Below are positions 8,161 through 29,184 of a DNA stretch of 64,000 nucleotides, in pieces. Within the stretch, counting starts at the first letter, position 1. Each line of letters starts with the position of its first letter. The DNA is from a virus, in IMG/VR virus record IMGVR_UViG_3300009506_000025, positions 1 through 64,000 of that record; one strand, written 5' to 3'. Position numbers and translations under genes: made by a program. Under the pieces are notes generated by a model. It did no database searches. It saw nothing but the letters and a program-made list of their open reading frames with translations, and had not been told where the DNA came from.

Positions 8161-9285
8161 ATGTACTTTCCGTCGTTCAATGAAATTCTGTCTGTCGCAT
8201 ACAGTCGTGGTGCAGCTTCTGAGGCACCTGGGCTGTGGAAGGGCCTCGTCGGTGCGTGGCCATTGCAGGAGGGCGGAGGGACAGCCGCATTTGATGTTAG
8301 CGGGTTCAGCAAGAATGGCACGCTGACGAACATGGAGCCGGCGACCGACTGGCAAGCCAGCCCCGTCGGTTATTGCCTGGAGTTTGACGGTAGTAACGAA
8401 TCGGTGTTGGCAGATGCAGTTACTCCCATCGGCACAGGAAGTTTTTCGGTAAGTGCTTGGGTGAACCTGGACGTTGGCGTTAGCAACGCTAGTGCGGCGA
8501 TAGTGTCTCAAGGAGACCTCGGCAGTGACGAGTGGATGTTCCGTGTCTCTGCTGCGGACAGTGCTAATGCTAAACTGCAACTATACGGTGCTGCTGGTCA
8601 AATAAACCCAACTCAGACTACTGGGGAGTTCGTCCAATACAAGGGTTCGTGGGTGCATGTCGTTGCCGTTAGAGATGCTCCAAGCACTGATGCAATCATT
8701 TATATCAACGGCGTAGAAGTTGGTAGAGATGACGTTGCATCGTATAATCTCTCGACCACTAAACAGATCCAGATCGGATGCGCCGATAGTACAGCGGGTC
8801 GTTGGTGGGAGGGGAAGATCACAAATGTTGCATTCTGGCATCGCACTATTCTACCTGGAGAAATCGTCGAACTCTACGTCGACCCCTGGGCGATGTATAG
8901 GCAGCGGAGACGGACGTCATTCCGGGGGGTAACGATCATTGAGGGGACAGTCTGCTGGGGGCACGATACTGCCGTCGAGGAAGACAACACCCGCGACTTT
9001 ACCGGGGACTGGACAGGCACAGGGTCGATTTCGGGTGCCGGTGACGCTGAACAGATTGATCTGGACGATGGAGAAACCATGGAGACCAGCCCGGTAGTTC
9101 ATACCGGCGCTGTCACCGTGACGATCCAAAAGAACAAATACGGCAGCGGCGATGCGGAGGTAGTGGTCAATTATCGCCACGGCGCAACGGTTGCCGCCTG
9201 CCAAGCGGCAGCATGGAACGAATACGCCGCTCCTTTCGTGTCCGCAGGTTACGTTCAGGTGCAGGTGGAGAACGAAGTTGCATGA
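8161..9285 (+). CDS. LamG/concanavalin A-like lectin domain protein
   Basis: [45 protein letters not shown]...EI..LY. Confidence 0.85.
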
Positions 9286-12212
9286 GGGCTCGATCAACGC
9301 CGTACCGCTTCTGGCTCATAGCAGCACTCCTGCTTTCGGGAGTGCTGACGATGGCTAAGAATCTCAACGGCCTTACTCTCACGGCCCCTTCCAGCGATCC
9401 CAACATCCTGGTGGGCGAATCGTTCGATTGCACGCTTACTCCTTCGTTCAACGGGTCGGGAACTCCAAACCCATACACTCTACAGTGGGAGTGGAACGAG
9501 GGAGAGGGGGCCTATTCGGCAATCGGTACGACGCCGACGAACGGCCTCTACCACGCCGCCACGAACCCGCTAGTCAATATCCAAGTAGACGGTCCTTCTA
9601 CGCTTGTAGTCTATGGTGGCACTAGCGGCATCTTTCACGTCCGCGGGAATGGAAACAGCGGCAGCTACTACACGTCGGAGCAGCAGGTAACCGTTTCCAG
9701 CGGTTCTGCTACTCCGAGTTCCACGCCCTCCGCCACGCCTTCCGCGACTCCCAGCGGCACGCCTTCAGCTACACCGTCAGCCACTCCCTCTTCGACCCCC
9801 AGTGCGACCCCTTCGGCCACTCCAAGTGCCACCCCGTCCGCCACACCTAGCACCACGCCCACTCCCAGCTCAACCCCGTCGGCGACCCCAAGTTCAACAC
9901 CCTCGACAACGCCCACTCCCTCAAGTACACCCTCCGCCACACCTAGCGCCACACCTTCCACCACCCCGACGCCGTCGAGTACGCCTTCATCTACGCCCTC
10001 CGCTACGCCGAGTACGACACCAACTCCCTCTAGCACACCGAGTGCAACGCCTTCAGCCACGCCGAGCGCAACCCCGTCTTCGACTCCTAGTGCCACCCCG
10101 AGCGCAACCCCATCTGCAACTCCGAGCACCACGCCGACACCATCGAGTACGCCAAGTTCCACTCCATCGGCAACTCCCAGTACGACTCCGACCCCGAGTT
10201 CCACGCCGTCAGCGACGCCGAGCGCAACCCCCAGTACCACCCCGACGCCTTCTAGTACCCCGTCGGCCACCCCCTCGGCCACACCGTCGACGACCCCGAC
10301 GCCTTCGAGCACTCCAAGCGCTACCCCTTCAAGCACGAGGAGTTCCACTCCAAGCTCTACCCCGAGCACTACGCCAACTCCCACAATAACCGGTACGGGG
10401 ACAGTATCAGCTACACCCTCTTCTACGCCGAGTTCCACGCCGTCGACGACCCCGACAGGCACTCCAACTATCACCCCGACCGCTACGCCATCATCCACCC
10501 CTTCATCCACTCCCAGCAATACGCCCTCCACCACCCCTACCCCGTCTTCGACCCCCAGCGCGACACCCTCAGCAACCCCCAGCGCCACTCCCTCGGCCAC
10601 TCCAAGTGCCACCCCAAGCACAACCCCCACACCCAGTTCGACTCCTTCGGCCACTCCATCTTCGACGCCGTCTGCCACCCCAACCCCCAGTTCAACTCCG
10701 AGCGCCACGCCCTCTGCGACGCCCAGTACGACGCCGACACCGAGTTCCACTCCCTCTGCCACCCCCAGCAGTACACCATCCGGTGCCGCGTTGTCCGTAG
10801 ACGACATCGTTGTCACCTGGTCAACAGCGAGTGCCACGCCGAGTTCGACTCCCTCTAGTACGCCGAGCGCTACTCCCTCTAGCACCCCCTCCGCGACCCC
10901 CAGCACTACGCCGACGCCTTCCAGCACGCCGAGCAGCACGCCCTCCAGCACGCGCAGCTCGACTCCAAGTTCCACACCAAGTACGACCCCCACCCCGACA
11001 GTGACTGGAACGGGAACGGTATCGGCAACGCCGTCTTCTACTCCGAGTTCAACACCGTCCACTACCCCAACCGGAACCCCGACGCCGAGTAATACACCTT
11101 CGACTACGCCAACTCCCTCTTCAACTCCCAGCTCTACGCCGTCGGCAACGCCCTCGGCAACTCCCAGCGCGACACCTTCAGCGACCCCGTCGGCTACTCC
11201 GAGCGCGACACCTTCGACTACGCCGACACCCAGTAGCACCCCTTCCGCGACGCCATCAGCGACCCCGAGCACCACGCCAACGCCCTCCAGTACACCGTCG
11301 GCTACCCCTTCTGCGACGCCCTCCACGACACCGACCCCTAGCAGCACGCCCAGCGCCACTCCATCGGCCACCCCGTCAGGGACCCCTTCGTCGACCCCGA
11401 GTAGCACGCCAAGTAGCACGCCGAGCAACACACCCTCGACGACCCCCACGCCTTCGAGTACCCCCAGTGCGACGCCCTCGGCCACACCCTCGACCACCCC
11501 TACTCCATCGAGTACGCCGTCTTCCACTCCTAGTGCGACGCCTTCGACTACCCCAACGCCCTCCAGTACGCCCTCCAGCACGCGGAGTTCGACGCCCAGT
11601 TCAACTCCAAGTACAACACCTACTCCAACAATAACTGGCACCGGCACCGTATCCGCCACACCATCTTCCACTCCGAGCACGACCGGGACTCCAACCCTTA
11701 CCCCGACGGCAACTCCATCCTCGACTCCGTCCTCGACACCTAGCAATACTCCCTCGACAACACCAACGCCTTCTTCTACGCCGAGTGCTACACCCTCGGC
11801 TACTCCCTCCGGGACGCCCAGCAGCACAGCCTCTGCGACCCCGAGTAGTACGCCCAGTGCGACGCCAAGCAACACACCGTCGGCGACCCCCACTCCATCC
11901 TCAACGCCAAGCGCAACCCCGTCAGCCACTCCGAGCGCGACGCCGAGCAGCACGCCGTCTGCTACCCCAACCCCATCCAGTACACCGAGCGCGACGCCGT
12001 CGACGACGCCAACGCCGAGCAGCACGCCCTCATCTACACCCAGCGCGACACCCAGCAGCACCCCCAGCGCTACACCCTCAACGACCCCTACCCCATCCAG
12101 CACCCCCAGCTCCACTCCAAGTTCTACCGGCGCCGCCGCCAGTGCGGTTCCCATTGTCGGGAGCGGAGGAATCCACTCCCTTGTCGGAGGGAGACAGGTC
12201 ATAAATGGATGA
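9282..12212 (+). CDS. Mucin-like Pro/Ser/Thr repeat protein with N-terminal Ig-like domain
   Basis: ATGA-coupled start with a hydrophobic leader (alternative start at 9351); ~800 aa of (S-x-T-P)n; overlaps the first glycosyltransferase gene. Confidence 0.9.
9700..12130 (+). repeat. Degenerate 12-bp coding repeat encoding (S-x-T-P)n
   Basis: About 200 tetrapeptide units with heavily varied synonymous codons; 3 copies of [18 protein letters not shown](I/V)[10 protein letters not shown]. Confidence 0.95.
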
Positions 12213-12915
12213 TCTGACTGTGATCTACATCACCGATAGCGTGCTGGACCCCACGATAGCCCACGGGTGCAGGAAAATACTAGCCAGGGCCGCTGGAGAT
12301 CACCGAATCATAAGCGTATCGCAGGACTTCCTGGAATTTGGGGACAACCTCTGCGTGGGCCGGATCGGACGTTCGGTGTTATCGATGGAACAGCAGATCG
12401 AAGCAGGACTGGAAGCGGCCACCTCACGGTGGGTTGCGATCGCCGAACACGATTGCATCTACTCAGAGGAACATTTTCGTTTTCGGCCACCAGACGACCG
12501 GTTATTCTGGTACAACAGAAACGTCTGGATCTTGAGGACAGACATCCAACGGTTCTCCTACAGGGAGCGCAAGATTCAATCTCAGATGGTCTGCGACAGG
12601 AAGCTACTCCTATCGGCGACAAGGATGAAGCTGGAGGTGGTAGCCAATCCGGGCTGGGAAAAGATGCGTCCCATGGGAGAGCCGGGAGCGGCTGGGTACT
12701 ACAGGTCGCGCCAAAGGTGTAGAGGGGAGGAGCTGAAGCGAATTGTCGGAGAGTACGCTCTGCGATTTAGCTCGCAGCCATTTGGGACCGCAGTACCCAA
12801 TGTGGATATTTGGCACGGAGGCAATCTTAGGGGCAGGCGAACCGGACTAAATGGGCGCTATCGATTGGAACCTTGGGGAGAATACGCAGATATATGGAAG
12901 ACATTCAGAAGCTAA
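12205..12915 (+). CDS. GT-A fold glycosyltransferase-like, paralog of 15403-16128
   Basis: IISVSQ, AGLEA, EHD (DxD-like), YNRNVW. Confidence 0.7.
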
Positions 12916-13475
12916 TCCATCGCAGGTTCAAGATAAAGAAGCGCAGCGACAATGTCGTGCGAGGTGCTCGCGGAGATAGAGTAACCCTCGCGGCCCTATG
13001 GGGAGAGGTCGGCCTGAATCGAGGGGTGGAGGTCGGCGTATGCAGGGGGACGTTCTCCAAGATTCTCTGCCTCAACAATCCAAACATAGAGCTGTACTCG
13101 ATTGATCCGTGGTTCACCGGAGGGCGGGTTGGGCATCGCCGCGAGAGACATATGCGGAGAGCCATAAAGAAGCTGGCTCCATTTGCAGTCACCATCATCC
13201 GCAAGACCAGTATGGAGGCACTAGCCGACTTCGAGGACGGTAGCCTCGATTTCGCATTCATCGACGGAAACCACACGTTCGACTACGTAGCCCCGGATAT
13301 CATCTTCTGGTCAAAGAAGGTACGTAGCGGGGGAATGATCGGGGTCCATGACTACCACCGGCACCGCTGGGGTGGCGTGATCGAAGCCGTGAACGCCTAC
13401 ACGTTCTGCCACAACATCAACCCCTGGTACGTCACTTGGGAGGCCACGCCCACGGCGTTTTGGGTCAAGCCATGA
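12894..13475 (+). CDS. Class I SAM methyltransferase (Methyltransf_24-like)
   Basis: GVEVGV..G, IDPW, LDFAFIDGNH, W..KV..GG.I..HDY. Confidence 0.85.
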   Translation: MEDIQKLIHRRFKIKKRSDNVVRGARGDRVTLAALWGEVGLNRGVEVGVCRGTFSKILCLNNPNIELYSIDPWFTGGRVGHRRERHMRRAIKKLAPFAVTIIRKTSMEALADFEDGSLDFAFIDGNHTFDYVAPDIIFWSKKVRSGGMIGVHDYHRHRWGGVIEAVNAYTFCHNINPWYVTWEATPTAFWVKP

Positions 13476-14164
13476 AGCTCTCGATCATCATCCCGGTCCT
13501 CAACAGCCACGAGATCGTCCGGAGGCAGATGGTGCATTACTCCGCGATGCCTCTTCCTCCAGACGTGGAGGTGATCCTGGTGGACGATGGGAGTGATCCG
13601 CCTATCCCCCAATCCATGGATCGATACATCAACATCCTCCGAACGCACGATACCCGCCCCTGGACCCAGCCCAAGGCCAGGAACATTGGCGCCCGTGCGG
13701 CCTGCGGCGAGTTCCTGCTGTTCACGGACATCGACCACATCGTACCGGAAGACAGCGTGAAGTGGTGCATGGATTGTCAATACGATTTTTCCAAGTTCCG
13801 ACGCTACCTGGGCGTCCTGGACGAGTTCGGCAGGATCACCCAGGATCGACAGGTGCTGGAGCAATACGGGGTCGACAGGAAGAAAGGGCTCCGCGTCTCT
13901 TGCCATACCCTCAGCATGGTTGTCCGCCGGGACCTGTTCTGGGAGACGGGGGGATACCGAGAGAAACTCGGCAAGCATCCAACCCACGATGATGGACATA
14001 TGAAGAAGATGCTGGGGCGTCGAGTTCGTAGAGGGGAAATCACTCGCTGTCCCGACGGACACGGGGAGGACGAGCGTCCAGTGATCTACGTCTTCCCAAA
14101 CGGGAGGTTTGGCGGCAGCGAAAACCATAATCCCATGGGCCTGTTCCACAGCTTGCAGCGATGA
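13472..14164 (+). CDS. GT2 glycosyltransferase
   Basis: LSIIIPVLN, VDDGSD, ARNIGA, FTDID, GGYRE. Confidence 0.9.
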   Translation: MKLSIIIPVLNSHEIVRRQMVHYSAMPLPPDVEVILVDDGSDPPIPQSMDRYINILRTHDTRPWTQPKARNIGARAACGEFLLFTDIDHIVPEDSVKWCMDCQYDFSKFRRYLGVLDEFGRITQDRQVLEQYGVDRKKGLRVSCHTLSMVVRRDLFWETGGYREKLGKHPTHDDGHMKKMLGRRVRRGEITRCPDGHGEDERPVIYVFPNGRFGGSENHNPMGLFHSLQR

Positions 14165-14763
14165 AGATACTACCCCCAGCCAGCTATGCCGCATACCGCG
14201 CCGGCCAGCGGAAAAAGTACCGCAAAAAGCGGAACCACGTCTGGATCAATCGTCGAGAGTGGGACTTTCTGGCTGCTACGATTCGCGAATGTGCCAAAGA
14301 GCTACGCCAGGGGATCTGCCACGGCGTCCGGAAGGGGATCGAGTGCGACAGGCTATCGGAACTCCTGGAGATCCCCGTGATCGGGACGGAGATCGGGAAC
14401 CCTCACTGGCACAGGGTAGTAGCGAATTGGGATTTTCATAAGACAAAGCCTGAGTGGAACGAGCAGTTTTCGTTTGTGTACTCCAACGCCCTGGACCACT
14501 CCTACGACCCGAGCCTGGCCCTGGCGACCTGGGCCACGCAGCTTCACGTCGGCGGGATCATGGTCCTGCACTGGGCGACGGATGATTTGGAGCCCAGCAG
14601 CCCGGAGGACTGCTTCGGCGCGACCCTGGAGGAGTACGCAGAATTGGTAGGTGTGCATTGTAGCGAGGTGCGGCTTATACCCTCTCCCGTCAAAAGGGGA
14701 AACAGGACCCTTGTCGTTGGAACGCGCAATGAGACTCTCCATCGTGACCCCCGTGTTGGATAG
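14161..14763 (+). CDS. SAM methyltransferase-like protein
   Basis: CHGVR.G.E, GTEI, WDFH, FSFVYSNALDHSYDP...L..W...L..GG. Confidence 0.75.
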   Translation: MKILPPASYAAYRAGQRKKYRKKRNHVWINRREWDFLAATIRECAKELRQGICHGVRKGIECDRLSELLEIPVIGTEIGNPHWHRVVANWDFHKTKPEWNEQFSFVYSNALDHSYDPSLALATWATQLHVGGIMVLHWATDDLEPSSPEDCFGATLEEYAELVGVHCSEVRLIPSPVKRGNRTLVVGTRNETLHRDPRVG

Positions 14764-15406
14764 CCACGAGATCGTCCGTAGGCAGTTGCTCCACTACAAT
14801 CGGATGGATCTGCCGGACTCCGTGGAAATCCTCTTCATGGACGATGGGAGCGATCCGCCGCTGGAAGGGAACGGGCGGGTTACGGTTCACCGGACGAACG
14901 ACACGCGCAAATGGACGGAGCACATTGCCCGCAACAAGGGGGCACAACTAGCCCGCGGCGAATACCTGCTGATGATCGACGTCGACTACATCGTACCCGA
15001 GCAGACCATCCTCCGGGCCATCGCCTTCGACGGGGATCGCATGGACTTCGATAGGAGATTTGGGGTTCTCGATAGGGAGGGGAAGGTCGATACCAGCATC
15101 CAAACTCTTGCCGTGTGGGGCCTGCTTCCGAAGTGGCAACGCAGGCGGACCCCCAACCACCGAAGTCAGTACCTAATGCGAAAGTCGCTGTTTGAGAAGA
15201 TCGGCGGTTATCGCGAGGATCGCTGGGGTAAGGCTCACCCGAAGGGAGGCGGGGCGGGGCAGAAGTTCTTCCTGAATTGGCGGAGACAGGAGATCCCACT
15301 GCCGGAGGAACGGCCCATCGTCTACATGTTTCCCAACGGGAAGTATTGCGGAGATCTGGACTACAACCCGTTTGGATACTTTCACAAGCTGACACGCAAA
15401 GCATGA
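14729..15406 (+). CDS. GT2 glycosyltransferase, paralog of 13472-14164
   Basis: LSIVTPVLDSHEIVRRQ, MDDGSDPP, ARNKGA, IDVD, IGGYRE. Confidence 0.9.
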   Translation: MRLSIVTPVLDSHEIVRRQLLHYNRMDLPDSVEILFMDDGSDPPLEGNGRVTVHRTNDTRKWTEHIARNKGAQLARGEYLLMIDVDYIVPEQTILRAIAFDGDRMDFDRRFGVLDREGKVDTSIQTLAVWGLLPKWQRRRTPNHRSQYLMRKSLFEKIGGYREDRWGKAHPKGGGAGQKFFLNWRRQEIPLPEERPIVYMFPNGKYCGDLDYNPFGYFHKLTRKA

Positions 15407-18676: not shown

Positions 18677-18677
18677 G

Positions 18678-18908: not shown

Positions 18909-18921
18909 AAAGGAGAGCGAG

Positions 18922-19380: not shown

Positions 19381-19412
19381 GAACGGACACCCTCGGCTGA
19401 GGCTCGGATGCC

Positions 19413-21876: not shown

Positions 21877-22772
21877 GCTGCGAGTTTCACAGAGCGGCGG
21901 ATACGCTGCGGAAGATCAACAGCCTGGGCGTGGCCGGACGCGCGAAGGATGCCTCGGACAGCATCAAGGTGATCGACTCCCTGCTCTCGACCTACAACCA
22001 GGCGAAGTCAGCTAACCACCTGGCAAAGTTTCAACCGGCGATGGACGGGTTCCTAGCAGCCACACGCAAGTCGATGACGGAACTCGTCTACGCGGTGGAA
22101 CAGATGGCCGAGATCGTCGGTCCCCAAAACTTCAACGCCTCGCCCCCGGCGTTGGAGTCGATGGCCGCCATGCGTAGCCGCAACTTCCCGGAGGCACCCC
22201 AGGTGGGCGCCCTGCACGGGGAGGATGCGATTATAAGGGATCTGCTTCCGGAGTCGGTCGGCCACTACGTCGACATCGGGGCCTGGCGCCCAGTAGAGCA
22301 GTCGAACACCTGGGCCCTCTACCAGCGGGGATGGAGGGGGCTGTTGATCGAACCGGTCCCCCAGGCTTGGGGCGCTATTTTGCATCAGCGACCAGGGGAT
22401 TTTCTGGCGCCCTGGGCAGTGAGCGACACCGCAGGACCGACCCGCATGTGGGTCAACGGCCCCCTGAGCACGATCCGGCCGGACAAGGCCCTGGCGGAGT
22501 CGAGTGAGATCGTGGTGCAAGGGCTTCCCTTGAATCAGATCTTGAAATTCTTTCCCACCATCCGTGATCAGTGCCTGATGTGCAGCATCGACGTCGAAGG
22601 CGCTGAAGAGGCGATCCTGAAATCTACCGACTGGAAGAAGTTCTCGCCCAGGATTCTAGTGGTGGAGTTCATCCACGGAAACCAAGACTCCATCAAGGCG
22701 ATCCTGACCGCAGCGGGTTACCGGAAGCAGGCCGACACCCGCAACAACCTGATCTTCAGCCGGAAGGAATAG
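21873..22772 (+). CDS. FkbM-family methyltransferase with N-terminal helical extension
   Basis: GTGA-coupled start; YVDIGA..P...SNT...Y..GW.G.LIEP, SIDVEGAE. Confidence 0.85.
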   Translation: MSCEFHRAADTLRKINSLGVAGRAKDASDSIKVIDSLLSTYNQAKSANHLAKFQPAMDGFLAATRKSMTELVYAVEQMAEIVGPQNFNASPPALESMAAMRSRNFPEAPQVGALHGEDAIIRDLLPESVGHYVDIGAWRPVEQSNTWALYQRGWRGLLIEPVPQAWGAILHQRPGDFLAPWAVSDTAGPTRMWVNGPLSTIRPDKALAESSEIVVQGLPLNQILKFFPTIRDQCLMCSIDVEGAEEAILKSTDWKKFSPRILVVEFIHGNQDSIKAILTAAGYRKQADTRNNLIFSRKE

Positions 22773-22775
22773 CTG

Positions 22776-23534
22776 GTGAGTACGATCCGCTGGCGAGAGA
22801 TCGAATGGTGGTACGTCAACCTCTCCACCCGCCCCGACCGCCGGGAGCACGCCGAGGAGCAATTCGCCCGCCATGGCCTCCAGGCCCGGCGCTTCGAGGC
22901 GTACACACCGGACCAGTGGAATGGGCCCGGCGCGGACGTCGCCATGATGCGTCCGACTCCCGGGGCGATCGGTTGCTTTATGTCCCAACGCGAGGTCACA
23001 CGAACTGTGGAGGGGACAGATAGGGTGGTGGCCGTCTGCGAGGACGACGTGCTGTTCTGCGACGATCTCTGCGATCGCCTCCAGTACATCGAGGAGAACT
23101 TCCATAAACCCTGGGACGTCTTCTGGCTGGGATCGACCTACCACGTCAACCCGCCAGTCTGGCACACCAAGGATCTGGGAAGGGATTTCTGCCAGACAGA
23201 CGTGAAACATATCCACCGGGCCTACGGGCTCTGGGGGACCTACGCCTACCTGGTCAACGGCCGTAGTGTCTCCAGGATCATGGAACTCTTCCAGCGGGAC
23301 CTGCCAAAGGCCCGGGGGATCGACGATCTCTACATCATGCTGGAGCCGGAGATCAACAGCTACTGCTTCACCCCCGGGATGGCGTTTCAGATCGACGGGA
23401 AGACGAACATCGGCGTAGGGGGAGACGGGATGACCATCTTCTCGAACTTCCACAAGCTGGGGCCCTATGTCTTCACGAAGCGGCTGGAGGATTTCGACTA
23501 CGACTCGTTCAATTGGGCGGAGGGGAAGCGATGA
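22776..23534 (+). CDS. GT25 (LPS biosynthesis-type) glycosyltransferase
   Basis: YVNL..RPDRR, G.IGC..S, EDDV.F, W.T.AYLVN. Confidence 0.85.
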   Translation: MSTIRWREIEWWYVNLSTRPDRREHAEEQFARHGLQARRFEAYTPDQWNGPGADVAMMRPTPGAIGCFMSQREVTRTVEGTDRVVAVCEDDVLFCDDLCDRLQYIEENFHKPWDVFWLGSTYHVNPPVWHTKDLGRDFCQTDVKHIHRAYGLWGTYAYLVNGRSVSRIMELFQRDLPKARGIDDLYIMLEPEINSYCFTPGMAFQIDGKTNIGVGGDGMTIFSNFHKLGPYVFTKRLEDFDYDSFNWAEGKR

Positions 23535-24292
23535 GCGAACTCACCGAGAAGGAATTTCACGATCAGGTCGAGGACACCTACCGGAGGATGTACCTTGAGC
23601 CCGATGCGCCCGCCCCATCGATGACGGCCGCGGAGTACCGCGGGCTCTACGGCGAGGTGGTGACCAACGACTGCTACGGACTGGGGGCGATAGAGTTTCA
23701 GCCCGAGGTGATCTTCGATCTAGGGGCGAACGTGGGGGTGTTTACCAACTTTGCACGCCGGCTTTTTCCCGAGGCAACGATCATAGCCGTCGAGCCCGAC
23801 GAGCAGAACATGCAGAACATGAGCTACCTGGCAACGGATCACAGCCAGACGGTGTTCATGGAGTACGCAATCGGACTTGGTCTGGTCTATTCTGCCGGAA
23901 GCCTAGCGAACGGAGCCCACCGTTCCTATATCTGCGATGGATCAGAGTACCTCCGACCATTTACCCAGGAGGGCGGGCGGTACAAGCTCTCCGATGTTCC
24001 TGCAATCACCCTCTCCGCACTGATGGACCTTTTTCCGATCCAGCCGCGTTTCATCAAGGTGGATATTGAAGGAGGGGAGGCGGCGATTTTCGAGCACGAG
24101 AAATCGATGCTGGCGCTCGCCGAAACGGAGGCATTTGCAATAGAGCTACACGATCGGTGGTGGGCGACCAGACTACAATCGCTGCTATCTGAGACCCACT
24201 CTGCCGAGTGGGAGCCTCGGACCTGCGTGCTGAAGGCAAGGAAGAGATCGCCGGCGACACCCCCATCGCGAGGAAGACCAACTCAGGAGTAA
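23531..24292 (+). CDS. FkbM-family methyltransferase
   Basis: IFDLGANVG.F, AVEP, FIKVDIEGGE. Confidence 0.9.
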   Translation: MSELTEKEFHDQVEDTYRRMYLEPDAPAPSMTAAEYRGLYGEVVTNDCYGLGAIEFQPEVIFDLGANVGVFTNFARRLFPEATIIAVEPDEQNMQNMSYLATDHSQTVFMEYAIGLGLVYSAGSLANGAHRSYICDGSEYLRPFTQEGGRYKLSDVPAITLSALMDLFPIQPRFIKVDIEGGEAAIFEHEKSMLALAETEAFAIELHDRWWATRLQSLLSETHSAEWEPRTCVLKARKRSPATPPSRGRPTQE

Positions 24293-24295
24293 CCC

Positions 24296-24841
24296 GTGGA
24301 AAAGATCACGAGCAGGGCACACTTCTACAAGCTCCTCGACAGACCGGAGTTGAAGCAGGCGGCGGCGGAGGTCGGGGTAGCTGAAGGCAGGTATTCCCGC
24401 GAGATCCTTTCGTGGGGAATAGGTAAGCTCTACCTTGTAGACCTGTGGGAGGAGATCGGGGGGATGAAGGGGTGCCCAAGCACCGGGCAACACCAGCAGA
24501 ACTACGACTCCTGCCTCCGTATCGTCGAACAATTTCCTGGTCGGGTGATCCTCCTGAAGGGATGGTCCTGGGAGCAGGCCAAGAATGTTCCCGACAATTC
24601 GCTGGGCCTGGTCCATCTCGACGCGCACCACTACTACGAGTCGGCGGTCAAAGACCTGGCGGCATGGTGGCCGAAGCTCCTGCCCGGGGGTGTGATGTCG
24701 GGCCATGATTATCTGGCCCACGAGTACACGGTCAGACAGGCAGTGGACGAGTTTGCTACAGCAAGAAAGATCGAGGTCCTTGTTGATAGGCCAGACGATC
24801 CCCGCAATGCCTCGTTCTATTTCAGAAAGCCCCCGGCATGA
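24296..24841 (+). CDS. Methyltransf_24-like methyltransferase
   Basis: AEVGVAEG, VDLW, LDAHHYYE, W.PKL.PGG..SGHDY. Confidence 0.85.
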   Translation: MEKITSRAHFYKLLDRPELKQAAAEVGVAEGRYSREILSWGIGKLYLVDLWEEIGGMKGCPSTGQHQQNYDSCLRIVEQFPGRVILLKGWSWEQAKNVPDNSLGLVHLDAHHYYESAVKDLAAWWPKLLPGGVMSGHDYLAHEYTVRQAVDEFATARKIEVLVDRPDDPRNASFYFRKPPA

Positions 24842-25614
24842 ACATCAAGGTCCTCACGGGCTACCAGGGCGATTGCCTCTATCGCGAGCTGACGCTGGCG
24901 AACCTTGGAGAATACTGCGCCAGGTGGGGCCACACGTTCGTATCTCGATTCGGCGACTGGATGGACGAGCGTGGCGAGATGGAGGAAACGGCCCGGAGGT
25001 TTTTGGAGAGATCCGGAGGAAGGATCTCGGAAGAGGAATACGCCATCCGTCCAGAGCACGCGACCCGCAAGATGACCCTTACCTGGGCCAAGCATCTACT
25101 GATCCGGGAGGAACTAGGCGGCTGCGACTGGCTCCTGTGGCTGGACGCCGACTGCAAGATTATGGATATGCGGGTGTCCCTGGATTCGCTGATAGACAGC
25201 GACCACGATCTTGTCCTTTCTGGAATGTTTCCCGAGTGCTGGGCGGCCAATACCAAGGCAGTGATGTGCAAGGAAGCGCCAGAGGGGCACGGGGTCGTCT
25301 CGCTTGGGATCATGTTGATGAGGAACTGTACCTGGACTTGGGATCTTCTGGACGCCTGGTGGGCGTCGCGCAACAAGGACTGGGCGAGAGAGAAACCCTA
25401 CGAGTGCATGTACCATGGAGACAATCAGTGGTTCTCGTGCCATTTCATGCTCAAGGCCCCCGGCCGGGATCGAGTAAAGGTCGTGCCCAAGGAGACGATG
25501 GGTTGGTGCCACCACAAGCCAGACCTCCAGCAGTTCATAATCCACCTCTACGGGAGCATCGAGGTGAATCGGCTGGCCATGCTCCGGGACTTGGAACGCT
25601 TTGTGAAACGATAG
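24838..25614 (+). CDS. GT34 (GMA12/MNN10-like) glycosyltransferase
   Basis: N..EYC..WG, W.K..LI, DWLLWLDAD, G..L.RN..W. Confidence 0.75.
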   Translation: MNIKVLTGYQGDCLYRELTLANLGEYCARWGHTFVSRFGDWMDERGEMEETARRFLERSGGRISEEEYAIRPEHATRKMTLTWAKHLLIREELGGCDWLLWLDADCKIMDMRVSLDSLIDSDHDLVLSGMFPECWAANTKAVMCKEAPEGHGVVSLGIMLMRNCTWTWDLLDAWWASRNKDWAREKPYECMYHGDNQWFSCHFMLKAPGRDRVKVVPKETMGWCHHKPDLQQFIIHLYGSIEVNRLAMLRDLERFVKR

Positions 25615-25624
25615 GTGGATCATA

Positions 25625-26287
25625 GTGGACGTCAGATTCACGAACATCACGCCCGTAGAGCCGCTGGTCCGAAACCCCGATAGCATCTCGGATGGGGAGA
25701 AGACAGTTATCGTCGTGGGTCTCGGCCGGGGAGGGACATCCGTCGTTGCGGCGGTGCTGGATGCCTTGGGGGTCTACATGGGACCGCGGGAGGAGCTGAG
25801 TACACAAGGGGCATTTGAGTCCGCCGTGTTCATCCATGGAACCCGCCAGGATCGCGAGGCGGAGATCGCCAGACTCAATGAATTGCATTCCATCTGGGGC
25901 TGGAAATGGCCCTATGGCGCTGATTTGCTTAGCGATATGTATGCCGGAGTGAGGAACCTCCATCCGATCTTTGTCTTCCGGGATGTCGTCGCCCTAATGC
26001 AGTCCTACGCGGTCCACGCCAACGAGTCGGTGGACGAAGTTGCCGAGAACCTTTGGGGGAGGTACTGCAATCTTTACGAGGCGGCGATGGGGACGGAACT
26101 CCCGGCACTACTGGTCAGTTTCGAGCGGGTGAAGATGCGCCCGGTGGATTTCGTCCACAGCGTAGCAGACTTCCTGCGTCTTGAGATCACTAGTTCCCAA
26201 GTTTCGGAGGCAGCGTCCCGGGTCAGTTTCCGTGGAGGATACCTGATCATGCCGGACGAGTACACGGATCGGAGGAAGGCCAAATGA
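25625..26287 (+). CDS. PAPS-dependent sulfotransferase-like protein
   Basis: 5'PSB-like IVVG.GRGGTS, WGWK.P, 3'PB-like IFVFRD.....QS, LVSFE. Confidence 0.75.
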   Translation: MDVRFTNITPVEPLVRNPDSISDGEKTVIVVGLGRGGTSVVAAVLDALGVYMGPREELSTQGAFESAVFIHGTRQDREAEIARLNELHSIWGWKWPYGADLLSDMYAGVRNLHPIFVFRDVVALMQSYAVHANESVDEVAENLWGRYCNLYEAAMGTELPALLVSFERVKMRPVDFVHSVADFLRLEITSSQVSEAASRVSFRGGYLIMPDEYTDRRKAK

Positions 26288-27072
26288 GCTTTAGCTTTGC
26301 AGTGACGGCCTACAATGAACTGTCCGAGGAGGGACGGCACGGCGACTTCATCCTCCGCTGCATCCGTCCCGCCCAGGAGCACCCCGCGATCGATGAGATC
26401 GTGGTGGTGGACGACAGCCCGTCAGACGAGGGCCTCGGCGCGTTCCTCGATGGTCAGGCGAAGGTTCAGTTCTTCCGCAACCCCCAGAACCTCGGGGTCT
26501 TCGGCAACAAGCTCGAAGCGGTGGCCCGCTGCCGGGGGGACTGGGTGATCAACTGTGACTCTGACAACTTCATGGACCGGGCCTATCTGGACAGCGTCAT
26601 AGCCCACGCGCAGCTCGGTGACACCTGGATCTCGGCCAGCTTCGCCAGGCCAGAGTTCGATTATCGGGGTCTCACGGGACTCTGGTCACGCGAGAACCTC
26701 CGAGAATTGCTCAGCCGTCCCCGGGCGGGATGCCTCCTGAACACCGGCAACCAGACAGTCTACCGTCCGGCCTTCATGGAACTCTTCGAGCGGGTGCGTG
26801 GTCTCCGGCCCGACCTGCTGATGCCCAACTGGCTCAATATCCCCGATGACCAGCGGCCAGCCCACCACTGGAGATTGGTCTTCGACGCCCTGGATTCCAC
26901 AATCTACAACATGATCTGGCTGCGGGCCGGTAATCGAATCCGGGTGGTCGAGGGGTTGGAGTACGATCACCACTACTCCTCCGGCGCCGACTCCAACTAC
27001 TCCCGCGCCCCCCGGGACAAGGACCGGCTCTCGGACGTCCTGCTACGCGAACTAGAACAGCTTGCAAGATGA
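26284..27072 (+). CDS. GT2 glycosyltransferase
   Basis: AVTAYN, IVVVDD, RN..NLG...NK, DSDN. Confidence 0.85.
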   Translation: MSFSFAVTAYNELSEEGRHGDFILRCIRPAQEHPAIDEIVVVDDSPSDEGLGAFLDGQAKVQFFRNPQNLGVFGNKLEAVARCRGDWVINCDSDNFMDRAYLDSVIAHAQLGDTWISASFARPEFDYRGLTGLWSRENLRELLSRPRAGCLLNTGNQTVYRPAFMELFERVRGLRPDLLMPNWLNIPDDQRPAHHWRLVFDALDSTIYNMIWLRAGNRIRVVEGLEYDHHYSSGADSNYSRAPRDKDRLSDVLLRELEQLAR

Positions 27073-28001
27073 ACACGATCACGATGCGGGAATTTGGCAA
27101 GTGGGGGCGCTGGGGAAACCAGCTCTTTCAGTACGCCTTTCTGAAGATCTATGCGAGTAAGTGGGGATGTGAACTCCAGCTGCCTCCCTGGGTAGGCAAC
27201 GTGCTACTGGCAGCGAACGATCCACCGATCACCGTGGCGCTACCGCAGACGAGAGAGACCACCGACAAGCTGGAACAGGGGCAGCCACCCAACGGTGCCG
27301 AGCTGGTCGGCAGGGACTACCAGGGCTACGCCCAGTTCCACACGGGGTACTATCGGCCACACGAGGAGCGAATCCGAAACGACCTTTGGCTCCCCTCGCC
27401 CCAGCTCAGGGGCAGGATGCGTCCGGCCATGGAGAAGCTCTGGGGCATGGGCAAGTCCAGGATCGGAATCCATCTCCGCCGCGGCGACTTCGGACGGCTC
27501 TGCTTCTACGTCACCCCGGTCGACTGGTATCTCCGGTGGTTAGACGAGCATTGGAAGCGGTTTGAGGAGCCCGTGCTTTTCATCGCCACGGAGACTCCAG
27601 ATCTCGTAAGGGAGTTCTCCGACTATCACCCCGTCACAACGACCGACCTCGGGATAGATCTCACTGGAGGACCGATGGAACACTACCAGTACCTCCGCCC
27701 CGACCTGCGGATGCGCGAGCCATGGCAGATGGATTTCTTCCCAGACTGGTGTATGCTGGCGTCCTGCGATGTGGTCCTGGCGCCGAATAGCACGTTCTCG
27801 TTCACCGCAGCGATGGCCGGCGACCCTCCGGAATTCTGGAGATCCTCGCTGCCTGCGGGCGCCTTCGTACAGGAAGACGTCTGGGACACCTTCCCCTTTC
27901 AGCACGTTAGGGCCGAGGACTATTGCCATATCCCCGGGGTCTGTCTGGACGAGACGGAATACTGGGTGCGGCTGCCCGATGGGAGGTTCAGGGAGAAATG
28001 A
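27069..28001 (+). CDS. GT11 alpha-1,2-fucosyltransferase-like
   Basis: GR.GNQLFQYA, GY.Q...YY, GIHLRRGD, NSTFS. Confidence 0.85.
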   Translation: MNTITMREFGKWGRWGNQLFQYAFLKIYASKWGCELQLPPWVGNVLLAANDPPITVALPQTRETTDKLEQGQPPNGAELVGRDYQGYAQFHTGYYRPHEERIRNDLWLPSPQLRGRMRPAMEKLWGMGKSRIGIHLRRGDFGRLCFYVTPVDWYLRWLDEHWKRFEEPVLFIATETPDLVREFSDYHPVTTTDLGIDLTGGPMEHYQYLRPDLRMREPWQMDFFPDWCMLASCDVVLAPNSTFSFTAAMAGDPPEFWRSSLPAGAFVQEDVWDTFPFQHVRAEDYCHIPGVCLDETEYWVRLPDGRFREK

Positions 28002-28525
28002 GAGATCTCGACGAAACCACGCTCAGCAGAATCGTCAGCGAAATGCTCTGCAATCGCTGGCGGAACATTCCCGAGCTAAAGGAGATGCTGGAGTGCTCCG
28101 TGGATGGCTATGGTCCTGGACGTACTAGCGATCGGGTGTCCCGCCAGATGGAGTTCACAATTAGGATTCCAAAAGCGGAATATATGTGCGAGAAGTCGTG
28201 GAAGAGGCCGGTAGAGAAAATCCCCTGGGACCCCGAGGGCCTAATGAACCCGGAGGCATGGAGTCGTCACTTGCACGATGCGATCGACGAGATCACCGAG
28301 GTCTTTCAGGAATGGCTAACGTATGCCACCTGCGCCGCGCCCATGCTGGGACTGCCCCACCCCCAGCCGCGTCTCGCCTGGCCTGGACCGCTCACAGCAG
28401 AAGTATCGCGAGATTTTTGCTACGCGTCGCTCGTGGTAGCCCTTGAGCTGTGGGTGACTATCATTGACGGCTCGCAGGAGCTGATGGTGTTAGGAAATAT
28501 CTCCCACAGAGGAGTCGGAAGATGA
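27998..28525 (+). CDS. Hypothetical protein
   Basis: ATGA overlaps at both ends; no recognisable motif. Confidence 0.6.
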   Translation: MRDLDETTLSRIVSEMLCNRWRNIPELKEMLECSVDGYGPGRTSDRVSRQMEFTIRIPKAEYMCEKSWKRPVEKIPWDPEGLMNPEAWSRHLHDAIDEITEVFQEWLTYATCAAPMLGLPHPQPRLAWPGPLTAEVSRDFCYASLVVALELWVTIIDGSQELMVLGNISHRGVGR

Positions 28526-29184
28526 ACGCAGTCACGGTATGCGTCAACTATGACGATTACCTGGCACTGACGTTGCCATGGAACGTCGGGCACTTTGACG
28601 CCTGGCTGATCATCACCGATCTGGAGGACGAAGCTACCCGGCGGCTGGTCGAGGACTCCCCCTGGGACAATGTCGAATGCTACGCCACGGACGCCTTCTA
28701 TCGAGGCGGCGCGCCGTTCCGCAAGGGCCTGGCGATCGAGGAGGGCTTCGACGCCCTGGGTCGCGAGGGATGGATGATGGTCCTGGACGCTGACGTGATC
28801 CTCCCCGAGGCGTTGACCAGACCGAGAGAGGGCTGGCTGGAAGACTGCATCTACTCGCCCCAGCGGCGGCTTTGCGAGGACGTCCGCTGGTTCACGCACG
28901 AACTGGAGTGGGACACACTCCCCTACGGGAACGAGAAGGTGATCTTCCCTTTCGAGTTCGCCGGATACTGCCAGCTATTTCATGCCTCCGCAAGCTGCCT
29001 GAAGAAACGCCCTTGGTACGGAGTAGATCACCCAACCGCCCAGGCGTGCGACAGCGACTTCTACTCGAAGTGGCCCAAGGCGAAGCGGGTACGGCCACCC
29101 TTTGAGGTCCTGCACCTCGGGCCGACGCGGGTGAACTGGAGCGGGAGGGTGAGTCCCAGGCTGGGGATCAATCGTGACCACTGA
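28522..29184 (+). CDS. GT-A fold glycosyltransferase-like
   Basis: TVCVNYDDYL..TLP.N, F.KG.AI..G, LDADV.LP, GY.QLF, D..F..KW, HLG....NW.GR. Confidence 0.75.
   Translation: MNAVTVCVNYDDYLALTLPWNVGHFDAWLIITDLEDEATRRLVEDSPWDNVECYATDAFYRGGAPFRKGLAIEEGFDALGREGWMMVLDADVILPEALTRPREGWLEDCIYSPQRRLCEDVRWFTHELEWDTLPYGNEKVIFPFEFAGYCQLFHASASCLKKRPWYGVDHPTAQACDSDFYSKWPKAKRVRPPFEVLHLGPTRVNWSGRVSPRLGINRDH

Follow-up and report, generated by a model that had tools for sequence, protein, structure and literature searches.

A glycan island joined to a Ser/Thr/Pro-repeat gene: a candidate mucin-type O-glycosylation system for a phage's own fibre protein

The window analysed here, 64,000 nucleotides of an IMG/VR virus record (IMGVR_UViG_3300009506_000025, positions 1 to 64,000), raises the question of what a phage modifies with a large set of sugar-handling enzymes that begins at the very end of a gene for a Ser/Thr/Pro-rich protein. 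It belongs to a complete tailed-phage genome of 72.8 kb, more than one quarter of which is taken up by the repeat-protein gene and the glycan island directly 3' of it. An earlier note had described this pair as a mucin coupled to a ~17-kb island, and both elements proved real: the island comprises 23 same-strand genes (12205-29184), and the ATG of the first, at 12205, overlaps the stop of the repeat-protein gene by 8 nt. Calculated with the starts of the longest ORFs, every junction gap in 12205-29184 measured 32 nt or less, with overlaps of 1 or 4 nt at 7 junctions. Downstream the island adjoins a structural block that includes a large terminase subunit, which marks the genome as that of a tailed phage. 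The genes around the island are:

8161-9285, + strand, Laminin_G_3 protein (ConA-like lectin fold), 374 aa, upstream neighbour of the repeat-protein gene (Pfam PF13385, E 8.5e-23)
9351-12212, + strand, Ser/Thr/Pro-repeat fibre gene, 953 aa (translation)
9351-9728, + strand, its Ig-like beta-sandwich N-terminal domain, 126 aa (AlphaFold pLDDT 92.9, Foldseek)
9696-12128, + strand, its (S-x-T-P)n repeat region, 811 aa with 498 Ser/Thr
29792-30805, + strand, scaffold-like protein (from its Ala/Glu/Lys-rich composition)
30993-32108, + strand, major capsid protein (NCBIfam NF033394 capsid_maj_Podo, 89.8 bits against a cut-off of 80)
33739-35484, + strand, large terminase subunit (PHROG phrog_2, E 1.7e-13)

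The repeat protein consists of the Ig-like N-domain, the 811-aa region and a 27-aa tail, and its gene is the only real S/T/P-rich ORF of the complete genome. Within ORF 9213-12212, the 811-aa region is 86% S+T+P; S-x-T-P occurs 165 times in it, and 92% of its length falls in [ST]-x-T-P tetrads. Interruptions of the type ITGTGTV/VTGTGTV, spaced about 205-210 aa apart, suggest three super-repeats. Compared as DNA, the repeats reach only 69-86% similarity and use all six Ser, all four Thr and all four Pro codons, indicating an old repeat kept at the protein level and ruling out recent slippage as its origin. An independently assembled 6,575-base contig from sequencing run X1, possibly the source sample itself, covered 8893-12700 with 0 differences, and contigs from a second sample (X2) matched both ends of the gene and broke inside the repeat. 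Foldseek paired the N-domain with Ig V-set folds from the PDB and, in BFVD, with the Ig-like domains found in phage tail, Hoc and decoration proteins, and it had no PHROG match; we presume that it is an attachment module docking on the virion. Its 83 homologues carry other repeats instead, with a PTS tail in 0/83, so the pairing of N-domain and repeat in this genome is a recent combination. The upstream Laminin_G_3 protein, with a homologue in 0/80 related loci, may be a fibre or receptor-binding partner.

Where the repeat protein begins bears directly on where it could go. The earlier note had given it ~980 aa from position 9282, with a repeat of ~800 aa; the repeat stands, but the start most likely does not, since for 74 of the 83 N-domain homologues, which start at MAK, the alignment opens with the homologue's residue 1 or 2 opposite the Met at 9351, and a GGGAG lies 8 nt upstream of that codon. 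A start at 9351 gives 953 aa, no signal-peptide-like leader and no overlap with the upstream gene. The same result touches the idea that a start at 9282 gives the protein a Sec signal or anchor and that, glycosylated before export, it coats infected or lysogenic cells as a secreted or surface layer. Serine-rich-repeat adhesins are glycosylated before export; at 9282 the ATG shares an ATGA with the stop of the gene before it and follows a GGTGGAG, a start there would supply a signal-peptide-like leader (25 letters), and a recombinase is present. We nevertheless consider this coat very unlikely, given the homologue starts, the GGGAG and a genome lacking both accessory secretion genes and membrane proteins. 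Between the two locations named in the earlier note, the absence of a signal peptide thus disfavours the lysogenic cell-surface coat and favours the virion fibre.

The genes of the island are as follows (counts out of 80 refer to the related viral loci considered below):

12205-12915, + strand, X, divergent GT-A fold glycosyltransferase with a conserved E-x-D motif, core cassette (AlphaFold pLDDT 93.1, Foldseek)
12873-13475, + strand, M, class I SAM methyltransferase, Methyltransf_24, core cassette (Pfam E 1.9e-17)
13436-14164, + strand, A, GT2 glycosyltransferase, core cassette (Pfam E 7e-12; 46/80)
14161-14763, + strand, protein of 200 aa, weakly methyltransferase-like (NCBIfam ovoA_Cterm E 0.0097, well short of the cut-off; 1/80)
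14651-15406, + strand, B, GT2 glycosyltransferase, core cassette (Pfam E 4.4e-8; 46/80)
15277-16128, + strand, Y, paralogue of X, presumably GT-A fold, core cassette
16118-16933, + strand, GT17-family glycosyltransferase (Pfam PF04724, E 8.5e-41; no PDB sequence match; 1/80)
16915-17844, + strand, P, GT27-like (polypeptide GalNAc-transferase-like) GT-A enzyme with a four-Cys insertion (PDB matches, motif alignment; GT2 above Pfam cut-off)
17841-18676, + strand, small genes z (71 aa; 4/80) and Z (206 aa; 6/80)
19413-20255, + strand, GT2 glycosyltransferase, genome-specific (Pfam E 1.5e-11; 0/80)
20201-21253, + strand, GDP-mannose 3,5-epimerase (PDB 8sg0, 2c59, E about 1e-82, full length)
21229-21876, + strand, FkbM methyltransferase (PF05050, E 3.3e-16)
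21756-22772, + strand, FkbM methyltransferase (PF05050, E 3.5e-14)
22776-23534, + strand, GT25 glycosyltransferase (PF01755, E 1.7e-10)
23513-24292, + strand, FkbM methyltransferase (PF05050, E 4.6e-9)
24296-24841, + strand, TylF-like O-methyltransferase (Pfam)
24838-25614, + strand, GT34 (Pfam)
25625-26287, + strand, sulfotransferase-like protein (Pfam E 5.8e-4, below cut-off; Atlas 0.98 to sulfotransferase clusters)
26284-27072, + strand, GT2 (Pfam)
27069-28001, + strand, GT11 (Atlas: features 0.97, structure TM 0.85)
27923-28525, + strand, protein with no assigned function
28522-29184, + strand, weak GT2_4-like protein (Pfam E 0.018)

The inventory proposed earlier largely held. Its ~11 glycosyltransferases correspond to 11 supported ones, namely eight above the Pfam cut-off (GT2 at 13436, 14651, 16915, 19413 and 26284, GT17 at 16118, GT25 at 22776 and GT34 at 24838) together with X, Y and GT11, the gene at 28522 being a weak twelfth candidate. 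Five of the six methyltransferases are clear (12873, 21229, 21756, 23513 and 24296) and the sixth, at 14161, is a weak hint; the sulfotransferase is backed by the Atlas but falls short in Pfam. The epimerase was borne out by its match to solved enzymes and would be expected to supply GDP-L-galactose or GDP-L-gulose.

Protein 16915-17844 (P) had been proposed as the initiating enzyme, and whatever computation could test of the earlier interpretation as a whole came out in its favour. Among the PDB matches of P, 13 out of 15 in a single-sequence search (best E 6.9e-8) and 14 out of 16 with a family profile (best E 8.3e-9) were ppGalNAc-Ts, none of which appeared among the PDB results for the island GT2 genes 13436 and 19413. 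The likeness is modest (about 35 bits), but the DxH, the Gal/GalNAc-T motif and the metal-binding His all align (LDAHC with LDSHC, WGQFGTEIS with WGGENLEIS, AHLFR with GHVFR), and D83, H85, C120/123/136/139, W216-E222 and H244 are invariant in 23 family members. No other cassette gene is as well conserved as P, whose median identity across the 80 loci is 58% versus 30-45% for the others, as fits an enzyme that reads a conserved peptide motif. Judged on these sequence features, P is a candidate initiating peptide O-glycosyltransferase. P has 3,323 homologues in metagenomes, and its relatives occur in 438 IMG/VR contigs, versus just 11 MAG contigs from a set of 185,579 species genomes; tblastn against 50,697 GenBank phage records, which presumably include mycobacteriophages, gave no match (E up to 0.01).

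Comparison of the 80 related loci limited the conserved partner of the repeat proteins to the opening ~5.6 kb of the island, with X, M, A, B, Y and P; the other ~11 kb found almost no match. There, the epimerase matched 1/80 loci, and 24296 cross-matched the M family in 64/80. Homologues of X occurred in 50/80 loci and those of either X or Y in 53; A or B was present in 46, and M-type matches in 67. X and Y share match positions in the loci and align together (A3); X has no Pfam match, and its top Foldseek matches were the WrtF fucosyltransferase, the chondroitin polymerase K4CP and SpsA, while A matched a 'Glycosyl transferase' (5tze/5tz8) and chondroitin synthase in the PDB. In the few relatives that have them, z and Z come after P; Z showed a median identity of 66% among relatives, and the z/Z region a weak Phage_BR0599 match (E 0.027). 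The best 120 long P homologues included 83 P-Y fusions; P-P, P-P-X, P-X-P, P-P-Y and B-P fusions were also found, many with the M domain.

The linkage between cassette and repeat was then measured against 80 randomly sampled viral control loci, counting as a repeat ORF any of at least 60 aa with at least 70% S/T/P. Such an ORF was present in 57 of the 80 related loci, always on the strand of P, versus 3 of the 80 controls, and these three look like out-of-frame junk (Fisher p 1.9e-20, treating loci as independent and ignoring relatedness; the 80 include at least 7 near-duplicate pairs and hence are not independent). Requiring at least 5 perfect tetrads left 31/80 versus 0/80, and with full 10-kb flanks the proportion rose to 15/16. 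A cassette gene lay within 100 bp of the repeat ORF in 34 of the 57 positive loci (median 45 bp), and linked loci spanned 34% to 64% G+C. Of the 23 loci that had no repeat ORF, about half were shorter than 12 kb or had a flank cut at the contig end; one (L007) has full flanks and counts against the linkage. The earlier note had named a cluster common in relatives that carry no S/T-rich protein as evidence against its proposal, and the opposite was found. The co-occurrence did not appear in the reverse direction: a peptide-pattern search gave a small sample of 6 viral loci carrying (S-x-T-P)n repeats, 3 of them ending inside the repeat; none of the 6 had cassette genes, and P was found in 0/5 of their whole records (positive control 5/5), all five being fragments 2-37% complete. 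Such repeats therefore also exist apart from the cassette. The relatives' repeat proteins carry Gly_rich_2, Laminin_G_3, Ig, Beta_helix, Phage-tail_3 and GDSL/CE2 domains and match PHROGs for neck passage structure and tail fiber assembly, and by these domains they look like virion fibres.

This linkage must be set against the usual reading of phage glycosyltransferase clusters, in which the island would serve superinfection exclusion or serotype conversion by remodelling surface glycans of the host (LPS, capsule, teichoic acid or S-layer), and the repeat protein would be an unglycosylated flexible spacer nearby. Passages of a report on cyanophage S-SCSM2R read its 13 glycosyltransferases in this way, as cell-wall modification genes (PMC12801897); according to family descriptions GT25, FkbM, TylF-like and GT11 are typical of LPS/O-antigen loci, and the serine recombinase (50406-51362) suggests a temperate lifestyle. 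We regard this as unlikely, because the complete 72.8-kb genome lacks multi-pass membrane proteins altogether, flippases and polymerases included, the core cassette stays linked to repeat proteins over the whole 34% to 64% G+C range, P is far rarer in MAG than in viral contigs, and the island sits in the structural gene block. Proximity to the capsid gene could also mean that the cassette, as in mycobacteriophages, modifies another virion protein (capsid, tail or Laminin_G protein) and the repeats are bare linkers. Mycobacteriophage glycans, in the part of PMC12619734 that cites Freeman 2023, lie on the C-termini of capsid and tail-tube subunits. On inspection, however, the capsid protein has no Ser/Thr-rich tail, the genome offers no second real S/T/P-rich ORF, P has no tblastn match (E up to 0.01) among the 50,697 GenBank phage records, and the repeat-ORF linkage would go unexplained; we consider this quite unlikely. 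Finally, hypermodification of phage DNA appears hardly probable at all. Sections of a study mining about 25,000 GT-containing contigs, mostly from IMG/VR, describe phage GT-A/GT-B enzymes that build glycans on 5hmC, but the known pathways they cover adjoin a thymidylate-synthase homologue or a C5-methyltransferase plus a 5mYOX enzyme (bioRxiv 10.1101/2023.12.21.572611). The complete genome gave no Thymidylat_synt or DNA_methylase match, a Tet_JBP search was negative with its control also silent, and M is of the Methyltransf_24 type, not a DNA C5-methyltransferase.

The locus thus probably encodes a cytoplasmic, mucin-type protein O-glycosylation system acting on the phage's own fibre protein. 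Adjacency and co-occurrence make the repeat protein the candidate acceptor; domain types and the absent signal peptide favour its virion location; and a cytoplasmic setting is suggested by the signal-less start at 9351 and by ORFs that each show at most a single borderline hydrophobic segment. Late in infection, the 953-aa protein would be made with its presumed virion dock, and soluble P, as a metal-dependent GT-A enzyme, would place the first sugar on the repeat Ser/Thr. The GT-A enzymes X and Y, the GT2 enzymes A and B and methyltransferase M would extend and methylate the glycan, which the genome-specific GT17, GT25, GT34, GT11 and two more GT2 enzymes could diversify and cap, the epimerase giving GDP-L-galactose, with further decoration by the three FkbM and one TylF-like methyltransferases and the sulfotransferase-like protein. 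The product would be a long bottlebrush glycoprotein fibre on the virion, which may serve in adhesion to polysaccharide matrices or host surfaces, or in shielding and colloidal stability.

Recurrence of the core pairing in hundreds of uncultured phages suggests a widespread, undescribed route to mucin-like glycoproteins. Virion glycosylation is already known in mycobacteriophages, according to the same part of PMC12619734, and the candidate initiating enzyme bears a specific likeness to the eukaryotic polypeptide GalNAc-transferases, from which P differs by having neither lectin domain nor membrane anchor and by carrying the four-Cys insertion.

The open reading frame at 9213-12212 (+) contains a region of 811 aa dominated by Thr (31%), Ser (30%) and Pro (25%). 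This region holds 165 S-x-T-P tetrads, [ST]-x-T-P tetrads make up 92% of it, and its proline autocorrelation peaks at lags 4, 8 and 12. Tandem Repeats Finder returned only short arrays from the underlying DNA (69-86% matches). Every synonymous Ser, Thr and Pro codon is in use, indicating that the repeat is maintained at the protein level and is not the outcome of fresh slippage. An independent contig of 6,575 bases from sequencing run X1, possibly the source sample, covered 8893-12700 with 0 differences, and contigs of a second run (X2) matched the gene at its two ends but did not cover the interior of the repeat. A low-depth contig of run X1 (depth 4.2, side 20) joins 9781 to 11784, omitting 2,002 bases of the repeat, and could represent a shorter allele of the fibre gene or a mis-join. 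An antisense ORF of 844 aa (9668-12202, -) was rejected as a gene and taken as a by-product of the stop-free repeat, since the flanking genes, the N-terminal domain of the fibre and the homologues of this domain are all on the + strand.

The earlier note had started the fibre protein at 9282, with a signal-peptide-like leader. When the 126 residues encoded by 9351-9728 were searched against 1.84 billion representative sequences (E up to 0.001), 83 homologues were obtained, 74 of which begin, with their own residue 1 or 2, opposite the methionine at 9351. Their usual N-terminus reads MAKxLxS, and a GGGAG lies 8 nt upstream of 9351. The start was therefore moved to 9351, which gives a protein of 953 aa without signal peptide, and this start also disfavours the alternative that the repeat protein is a secreted coat. 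The N-terminal domain was modelled as an all-beta sandwich (pLDDT 92.9) with fold matches to the Ig V-set in the PDB and to the Ig-like domains of phage tail, Hoc and decoration proteins in BFVD. Read from 9282 (976 aa), the whole fibre protein matched no Pfam family, and no PHROG match was found among 39 members of the N-domain family. A PTS tail was present in 0/83 of the homologues, which carry other repeats of a fibrous kind instead.

The stop codon of the fibre gene overlaps the next ATG (12205) by 8 nt, and from there to 29184 the glycosylation island comprises 23 same-strand ORFs separated by gaps of no more than 32 nt. Promoter and terminator scans of 4000-36000 returned fewer sites than shuffled sequence and are uninformative on operon structure. 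Above the Pfam cut-off, we found eight glycosyltransferases (five GT2, one GT17, one GT25 and one GT34) and five methyltransferases (two Methyltransf_24, one of them TylF-like, and three FkbM). Further island genes, together with the GT17 gene, were assigned as follows:

16118-16933 (+): GT17-family protein (Pfam, E 8.5e-41)
20201-21253 (+): GDP-mannose 3,5-epimerase (PDB 8sg0, E 1e-82; 2c59, E 2.1e-82; residues 13-344)
25625-26287 (+): sulfotransferase-like protein (below the Pfam cut-off; Atlas score 0.98)
27069-28001 (+): GT11 glycosyltransferase (Atlas features 0.97; structure TM 0.85)
28522, start (+): weak twelfth glycosyltransferase candidate

The epimerase was assigned by its full-length similarity to characterised enzymes; the solved enzymes that it matches are plant-type, and the next family, UDP-glucuronate decarboxylase, follows at E 1e-26. 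No PDB sequence match was found for the GT17 protein, whose family is chiefly familiar for the bisecting GlcNAc transferase of eukaryotes. Two paralogues without Pfam match, X (12205) and Y (15277), were identified by fold search only: the model of X (pLDDT 93.1) has a GT-A fold and comes closest, at a modest TM of ~0.45, to the WrtF fucosyltransferase, chondroitin polymerase and SpsA. By sequence, an X/Y profile gave a single chance-level PDB match (E 0.11), and Pfam searches of 31 X/Y members returned nothing meaningful. With X, Y and the GT11 enzyme added to the eight Pfam assignments, 11 glycosyltransferases are supported, in agreement with the ~11 counted in the earlier note, and the weak candidate at 28522 would be a twelfth. 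A Kyte-Doolittle hydropathy scan of the 79 ORFs of the genome showed at most one borderline hydrophobic segment per protein and no flippase, polymerase or multi-pass membrane protein in the complete genome; the island enzymes are thus predicted to be soluble. An unlikely alternative is that the island glycosyltransferases act in glycan hypermodification of DNA. Such pathways need a thymidylate-synthase homologue, or a C5-methyltransferase together with a 5mYOX enzyme, beside the glycosyltransferases (bioRxiv 10.1101/2023.12.21.572611). In that study ~65% of the GT contigs lack a base-modification neighbour, and contigs of the P family might be among them. The complete genome gave no match to Thymidylat_synt (PF00303) or DNA_methylase (PF00145), and none to Tet_JBP (PF12851), a model whose control was also silent.

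The gene at 16915-17844 (P), picked in the earlier note, encodes the candidate initiating enzyme. Polypeptide GalNAc-transferases accounted for 13 of the 15 PDB matches of the single P sequence (best E 6.9e-8) and for 14 of the 16 matches of a profile built from 23 family members (best E 8.3e-9). Two other GT2 genes of the island (13436 and 19413), used as controls, matched 'Glycosyl transferase' 5tze/5tz8 and chondroitin synthase and no ppGalNAc-transferase. A weak match (E 8.1e-6) was to chain 5hea, 'putative glycosyltransferase (GalT1)', which we take to belong to the Fap1 pathway. Residues 5-109 of P align with the nucleotide-binding half of the ppGalNAc-transferases and residues 163-249 with the Gal/GalNAc-T half, LDAHC corresponding to LDSHC of GalNAc-T2, WGQFGTEIS to WGGENLEIS and AHLFR to GHVFR. 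Among the 23 family members D83, H85, W216, G217, Q218, G220, E222 and H244 are invariant, so that the GT27 features DxH (D83/H85), the Gal/GalNAc-T motif and the downstream metal-ligand histidine (H244) are present, the second as a variant in which Q-x-G replaces G-E-N. The ppGalNAc-transferases align only on both sides of an insertion (residues 110-162) between the two halves, in which C120, C123, C136 and C139 are invariant in the same 23 members. This insertion looks like a zinc ribbon and may be a peptide-binding element standing in for the lectin domain: no ricin-type lectin domain was found in P, which ends at 309 aa with GT2-type Pfam domains only. The Kyte-Doolittle scan found no hydrophobic segment in P that could serve as the membrane anchor of the type II membrane GT27 enzymes. 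As judged from its sequence, P is GT27-like on paper but not a GT27 member in the strict sense.

Homologues of P are abundant: 3,323 were of similar length (E up to 1e-5; the best 120 were 63-87% identical) and 1,975 were longer. The best 120 of the longer ones comprised 83 P-Y, 21 P-P, 6 P-P-X, 3 P-X-P, 3 P-P-Y, 2 B-P (B, the GT2 gene at 14651), 1 P-X and 1 P alone, and many of them also carried a Methyltransf_24 domain, that of M (12873). None of the fusion partners in these long homologues (Y, P, X, B or M) is a lectin, and the fusions link P with X/Y, B and M as parts of a single pathway. A relative of P is encoded in 438 IMG/VR contigs. Among 185,579 prokaryote species (one genome each) only 11 contigs, all from MAGs of scattered taxa, contained one, as expected of mis-binned virus contigs. 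The 50,697 GenBank phage records searched by tblastn contained nothing similar to P at E values up to 0.01.

We then compared the genes of this genome by tblastn with the 80 best IMG/VR loci encoding a P relative. Besides P itself (80/80, by construction), matches were found for X in 50 loci, M in 66, A (the GT2 gene at 13436) in 46, B in 46 and Y in 45. The remaining island genes were matched far more rarely: Z in 6 loci, z in 4, the GT17 gene (L078, in two copies), the gene at 14161 and the epimerase in 1 each and the others in none, apart from 24296, whose 64/80 matches arose through cross-match to the M family. P was the best conserved cassette gene, with a median identity of 58% compared to 30-45% for the others. 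The small genes z (71 aa) and Z (206 aa), at 17841-18676 (+), lie directly 3' of P here and in a few related loci (L002, L003, L004, L008, L012 and L060); Z had a median identity of 66% to its homologues in related loci, and the only family signal of the pair was a weak one to Phage_BR0599 (E 0.027). By contrast with the cassette, neither the N-domain of the fibre nor the Laminin_G gene nor any structural gene was matched in the 80 related loci, whose G+C content ranged from 34% to 64%.

The backbone that carries the cassette here is a record of 72,807 bp, rated 100% complete, whose direct terminal repeats are 144 bp long; the window is bases 1-64000 of it, and the runs that hold this stretch are labelled marine sediment metagenome. 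Its recognisable genes beyond the island include:

6626-7264 (+): FeeM N-acyl amino acid synthase family gene (PF21926, E 3.7e-26)
30993-32108 (+): major capsid protein, HK97-type (NCBIfam NF033394 capsid_maj_Podo, 89.8 bits, cut-off 80)
33739-35484 (+): large terminase subunit (phrog_2, E 1.7e-13)
50406-51362 (-): serine recombinase (Resolvase N-terminal domain, E 1.1e-24)
53409-56220 (-): MoxR-like AAA protein (weak AAA_5) and DUF2201 metallopeptidase/VWA protein (E 2.1e-31)

The terminase and the HK97-type capsid match in a complete genome assign it, by sequence similarity, to the tailed phages (Caudoviricetes). No relatives of the terminase were found in GenBank phages, nor in IMG/VR by a peptide-pattern search, which leaves the backbone without a close relative for comparison. 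When five P-carrying records were inspected, three of them complete genomes of 68-80 kb, a capsid protein homologue was present in one and phrog_2 in one, indicating that the cassette spans unrelated phage backbones. Given the serine recombinase the phage may be temperate, although no P-family gene was found in isolate genomes. No tRNA genes were found. The FeeM-family gene lies three genes upstream of the fibre gene, and a lipid-like signalling or acylation enzyme is unusual in a phage structural region; the MoxR/VWA-like pair is better known from cellular genomes.

If P acted on repeat proteins, its relatives should not commonly occur without one, and the earlier note had named precisely that situation as the one that would point to another target. 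We counted an ORF as a repeat ORF when it held a stretch of 60 aa or longer with an S/T/P content of 70% or higher, and as a control used 80 of 119 viral loci drawn with an arbitrary 14-mer (795 kb, median G+C 0.62). A repeat ORF was present in 57/80 related loci, in every one of them on the strand of P, and in 3/80 control loci, where all three looked like out-of-frame junk without periodicity; GT clusters lacking an S/T-rich protein are thus not the common state among relatives, with 23/80 loci having no repeat ORF. The density was 48.6 compared to 3.8 repeat ORFs per Mb, and Fisher's test gave p 1.9e-20, a value that ignores relatedness in a set where at least 7 locus pairs are near-duplicates. 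A stricter test (at least 5 perfect tetrads) retained 31/80 related and 0/80 control loci, and 3/11 of the MAG loci; on the composition test, 15/16 related loci with full 10-kb flanks were positive. The repeats belong to the same pattern family as that of the fibre, reading [20 protein letters not shown] and, more generally, having Ser at every second position. In 34 of the 57 loci the repeat ORF lay within 100 bp of a cassette gene (median 45 bp). The non-repeat parts of 37 repeat ORFs contained Gly_rich_2 (3), Laminin_G_3, Ig, Beta_helix, Phage-tail_3 and GDSL/CE2 domains, and matched the PHROGs neck passage structure and tail fiber assembly; on these matches, the repeat ORFs of the relatives are predicted to be fibre- or spike-type particle proteins.

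In the reverse direction, a search with the repeat pattern confirmed 6 viral loci with (S-x-T-P)n-like repeats. No cassette gene was found in these six loci, and P was absent from five whole records, while the positive control recovered P in 5/5 records. The records of this test were fragments, 2-37% complete, and three of the loci break off within the repeat. Clearly, (S-x-T-P)n repeats exist without a visible cassette. Three of the IMG/VR fragments (L213-L215) carry very similar repeats of the TPSVTPSITP type and probably derive from viruses with much larger genomes, the record of L213 being 91,965 bp long and rated 30% complete. These contigs stop within the repeat, so that many genes of this kind may be hidden by assembly breaks.

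Phage glycosyltransferase clusters are usually read as remodelling the host surface (PMC12801897), and the same might be said of this island; that reading leaves unexplained why the cassette is linked to repeat proteins, why membrane enzymes are lacking and why P is nearly restricted to viruses. We favour instead cytoplasmic O-glycosylation of the fibre repeats. P would initiate on the repeats, X/Y, A and B would extend the glycan and M would methylate it; the enzymes specific to this genome would then diversify the product, the epimerase by supplying L-galactose, which the GT11 enzyme could use, and the decorated fibre would be attached to the particle by its Ig-like domain. Established here are the gene content, the likeness of P specifically to ppGalNAc-transferases, its fusions and the repeat linkage, and from these every step of the pathway is inferred. 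In its general form, the proposition that GT27-like enzymes, nearly confined to viruses, initiate mucin-type O-glycosylation on dedicated Ser/Thr/Pro-repeat fibres in hundreds of unrelated uncultured phage lineages is a tentative one, to which we give somewhat less than an even chance.

Were it true, phages would produce mucin-like glycoproteins of their own by means of a portable enzyme cassette, and glycan-coated 'mucin' fibres would be a common trait of phage particles that has so far gone unrecognised. The surface chemistry of these particles would have to be rethought, from their antigenicity and colloidal behaviour to the way they adhere to biofilm and sediment matrices and resist proteases and grazers. 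In the P family the ppGalNAc-transferases would have a relative from viruses of prokaryotes, and the enzymes that initiate animal mucin synthesis their closest relative outside eukaryotes; glycobiology would gain a compact, soluble, cytoplasmic toolkit for peptide O-glycosylation with a natural acceptor tag, (S-x-[ST]-P)n. The absence of the family from GenBank phage records, despite its abundance in metagenomes, would explain how it escaped experiment.

Several known systems resemble the one proposed. Eukaryotic mucin-type O-glycosylation (GT27) shares with P the GT-A core, DxH, the Gal/GalNAc-T motif and the histidine as third metal ligand. The ppGalNAc-transferases prefer acceptors with Pro at -1 and +3, and the candidate substrate here, like eukaryotic PTS domains, is a long Pro/Thr/Ser repeat with Pro at -1/+3 of Ser; GT11, GT17 and GT34, families that extend and cap glycans, and a sulfotransferase also occur in the island. 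Unlike GT27 enzymes, P lacks the ricin-type lectin domain, the membrane anchor and the secretory pathway, carries a four-Cys insertion separating the two motifs, reads WGQxGxE where they have WGGENxE, and is shorter (~309 aa as opposed to >470 aa for solved GT27 enzymes). Its context is viral and prokaryote-like, with operon-like packing, a terminase and an HK97-type capsid match.

Serine-rich-repeat adhesins of the GspB/Fap1 type combine long Ser-x repeats and cytoplasmic glycosylation with a dedicated multi-enzyme locus beside the substrate gene, and repeats of the relatives (SASVSASPSTS...) resemble theirs. In contrast to these cellular systems, the present one is viral; Pfam scans showed no GT4-type GtfA/B initiator in the island, the fibre started at 9351 has no signal peptide, and no accessory Sec system or cell-wall anchor was recognised, the hydropathy scan showing no multi-pass membrane protein in the genome. 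Giant viruses also build complex, partly methylated virion-surface glycans with virus-encoded, host-independent soluble glycosyltransferases and methyltransferases, as in the methylated sugars of chlorovirus capsid glycans and the fibril glycans of mimivirus. They differ in having eukaryotic hosts, genomes of several hundred kb, compared to 73 kb for this tailed phage, and other acceptors, and we know of no GT27-like initiator paired with a PTS-repeat substrate described in them. T4 Hoc-type surface proteins share the Ig-like sandwich, the viral fold matches being to Hoc, capsid-decorating and major-tail Ig domains, but these proteins bind glycans whereas the fibre would carry them. As to Wzx/Wzy-type loci, neither a Pfam family for an initiating phosphoglycosyltransferase, flippase or polymerase nor a multi-pass protein was found.

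In mycobacteriophages, phage glycosyltransferases put O-glycans on the phage's own structural proteins (Freeman et al. 2023, Cell Host Microbe, as cited in PMC12619734 and PMC12801897), the acceptors being the C-termini of capsid and tail-tube subunits (PMC12619734). The system proposed here would share with them phage-encoded glycosyltransferases acting on the phage's own particle, while its acceptor would be a dedicated repeat fibre of 811 aa. The capsid protein at 30993-32108 has no Ser/Thr-rich tail, and the fibre is the only real S/T/P-rich ORF in the genome. The island, moreover, has ~23 enzymes, including 11 glycosyltransferases, and P, the enzyme compared by tblastn, had no match in 50,697 GenBank phage records, a collection expected to include the mycobacteriophages. 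A literature search that had most subscription journals outside its coverage found no described phage system of this kind. Virus-encoded glycosylation of a virus's own particle proteins is already known, the mycobacteriophages being the nearest case (PMC12619734); what this genome and its relatives would add is an initiator resembling GT27 enzymes, a mucin-like protein dedicated as acceptor, and a portable cassette, prone to fusion, that is widespread in uncultured phages.
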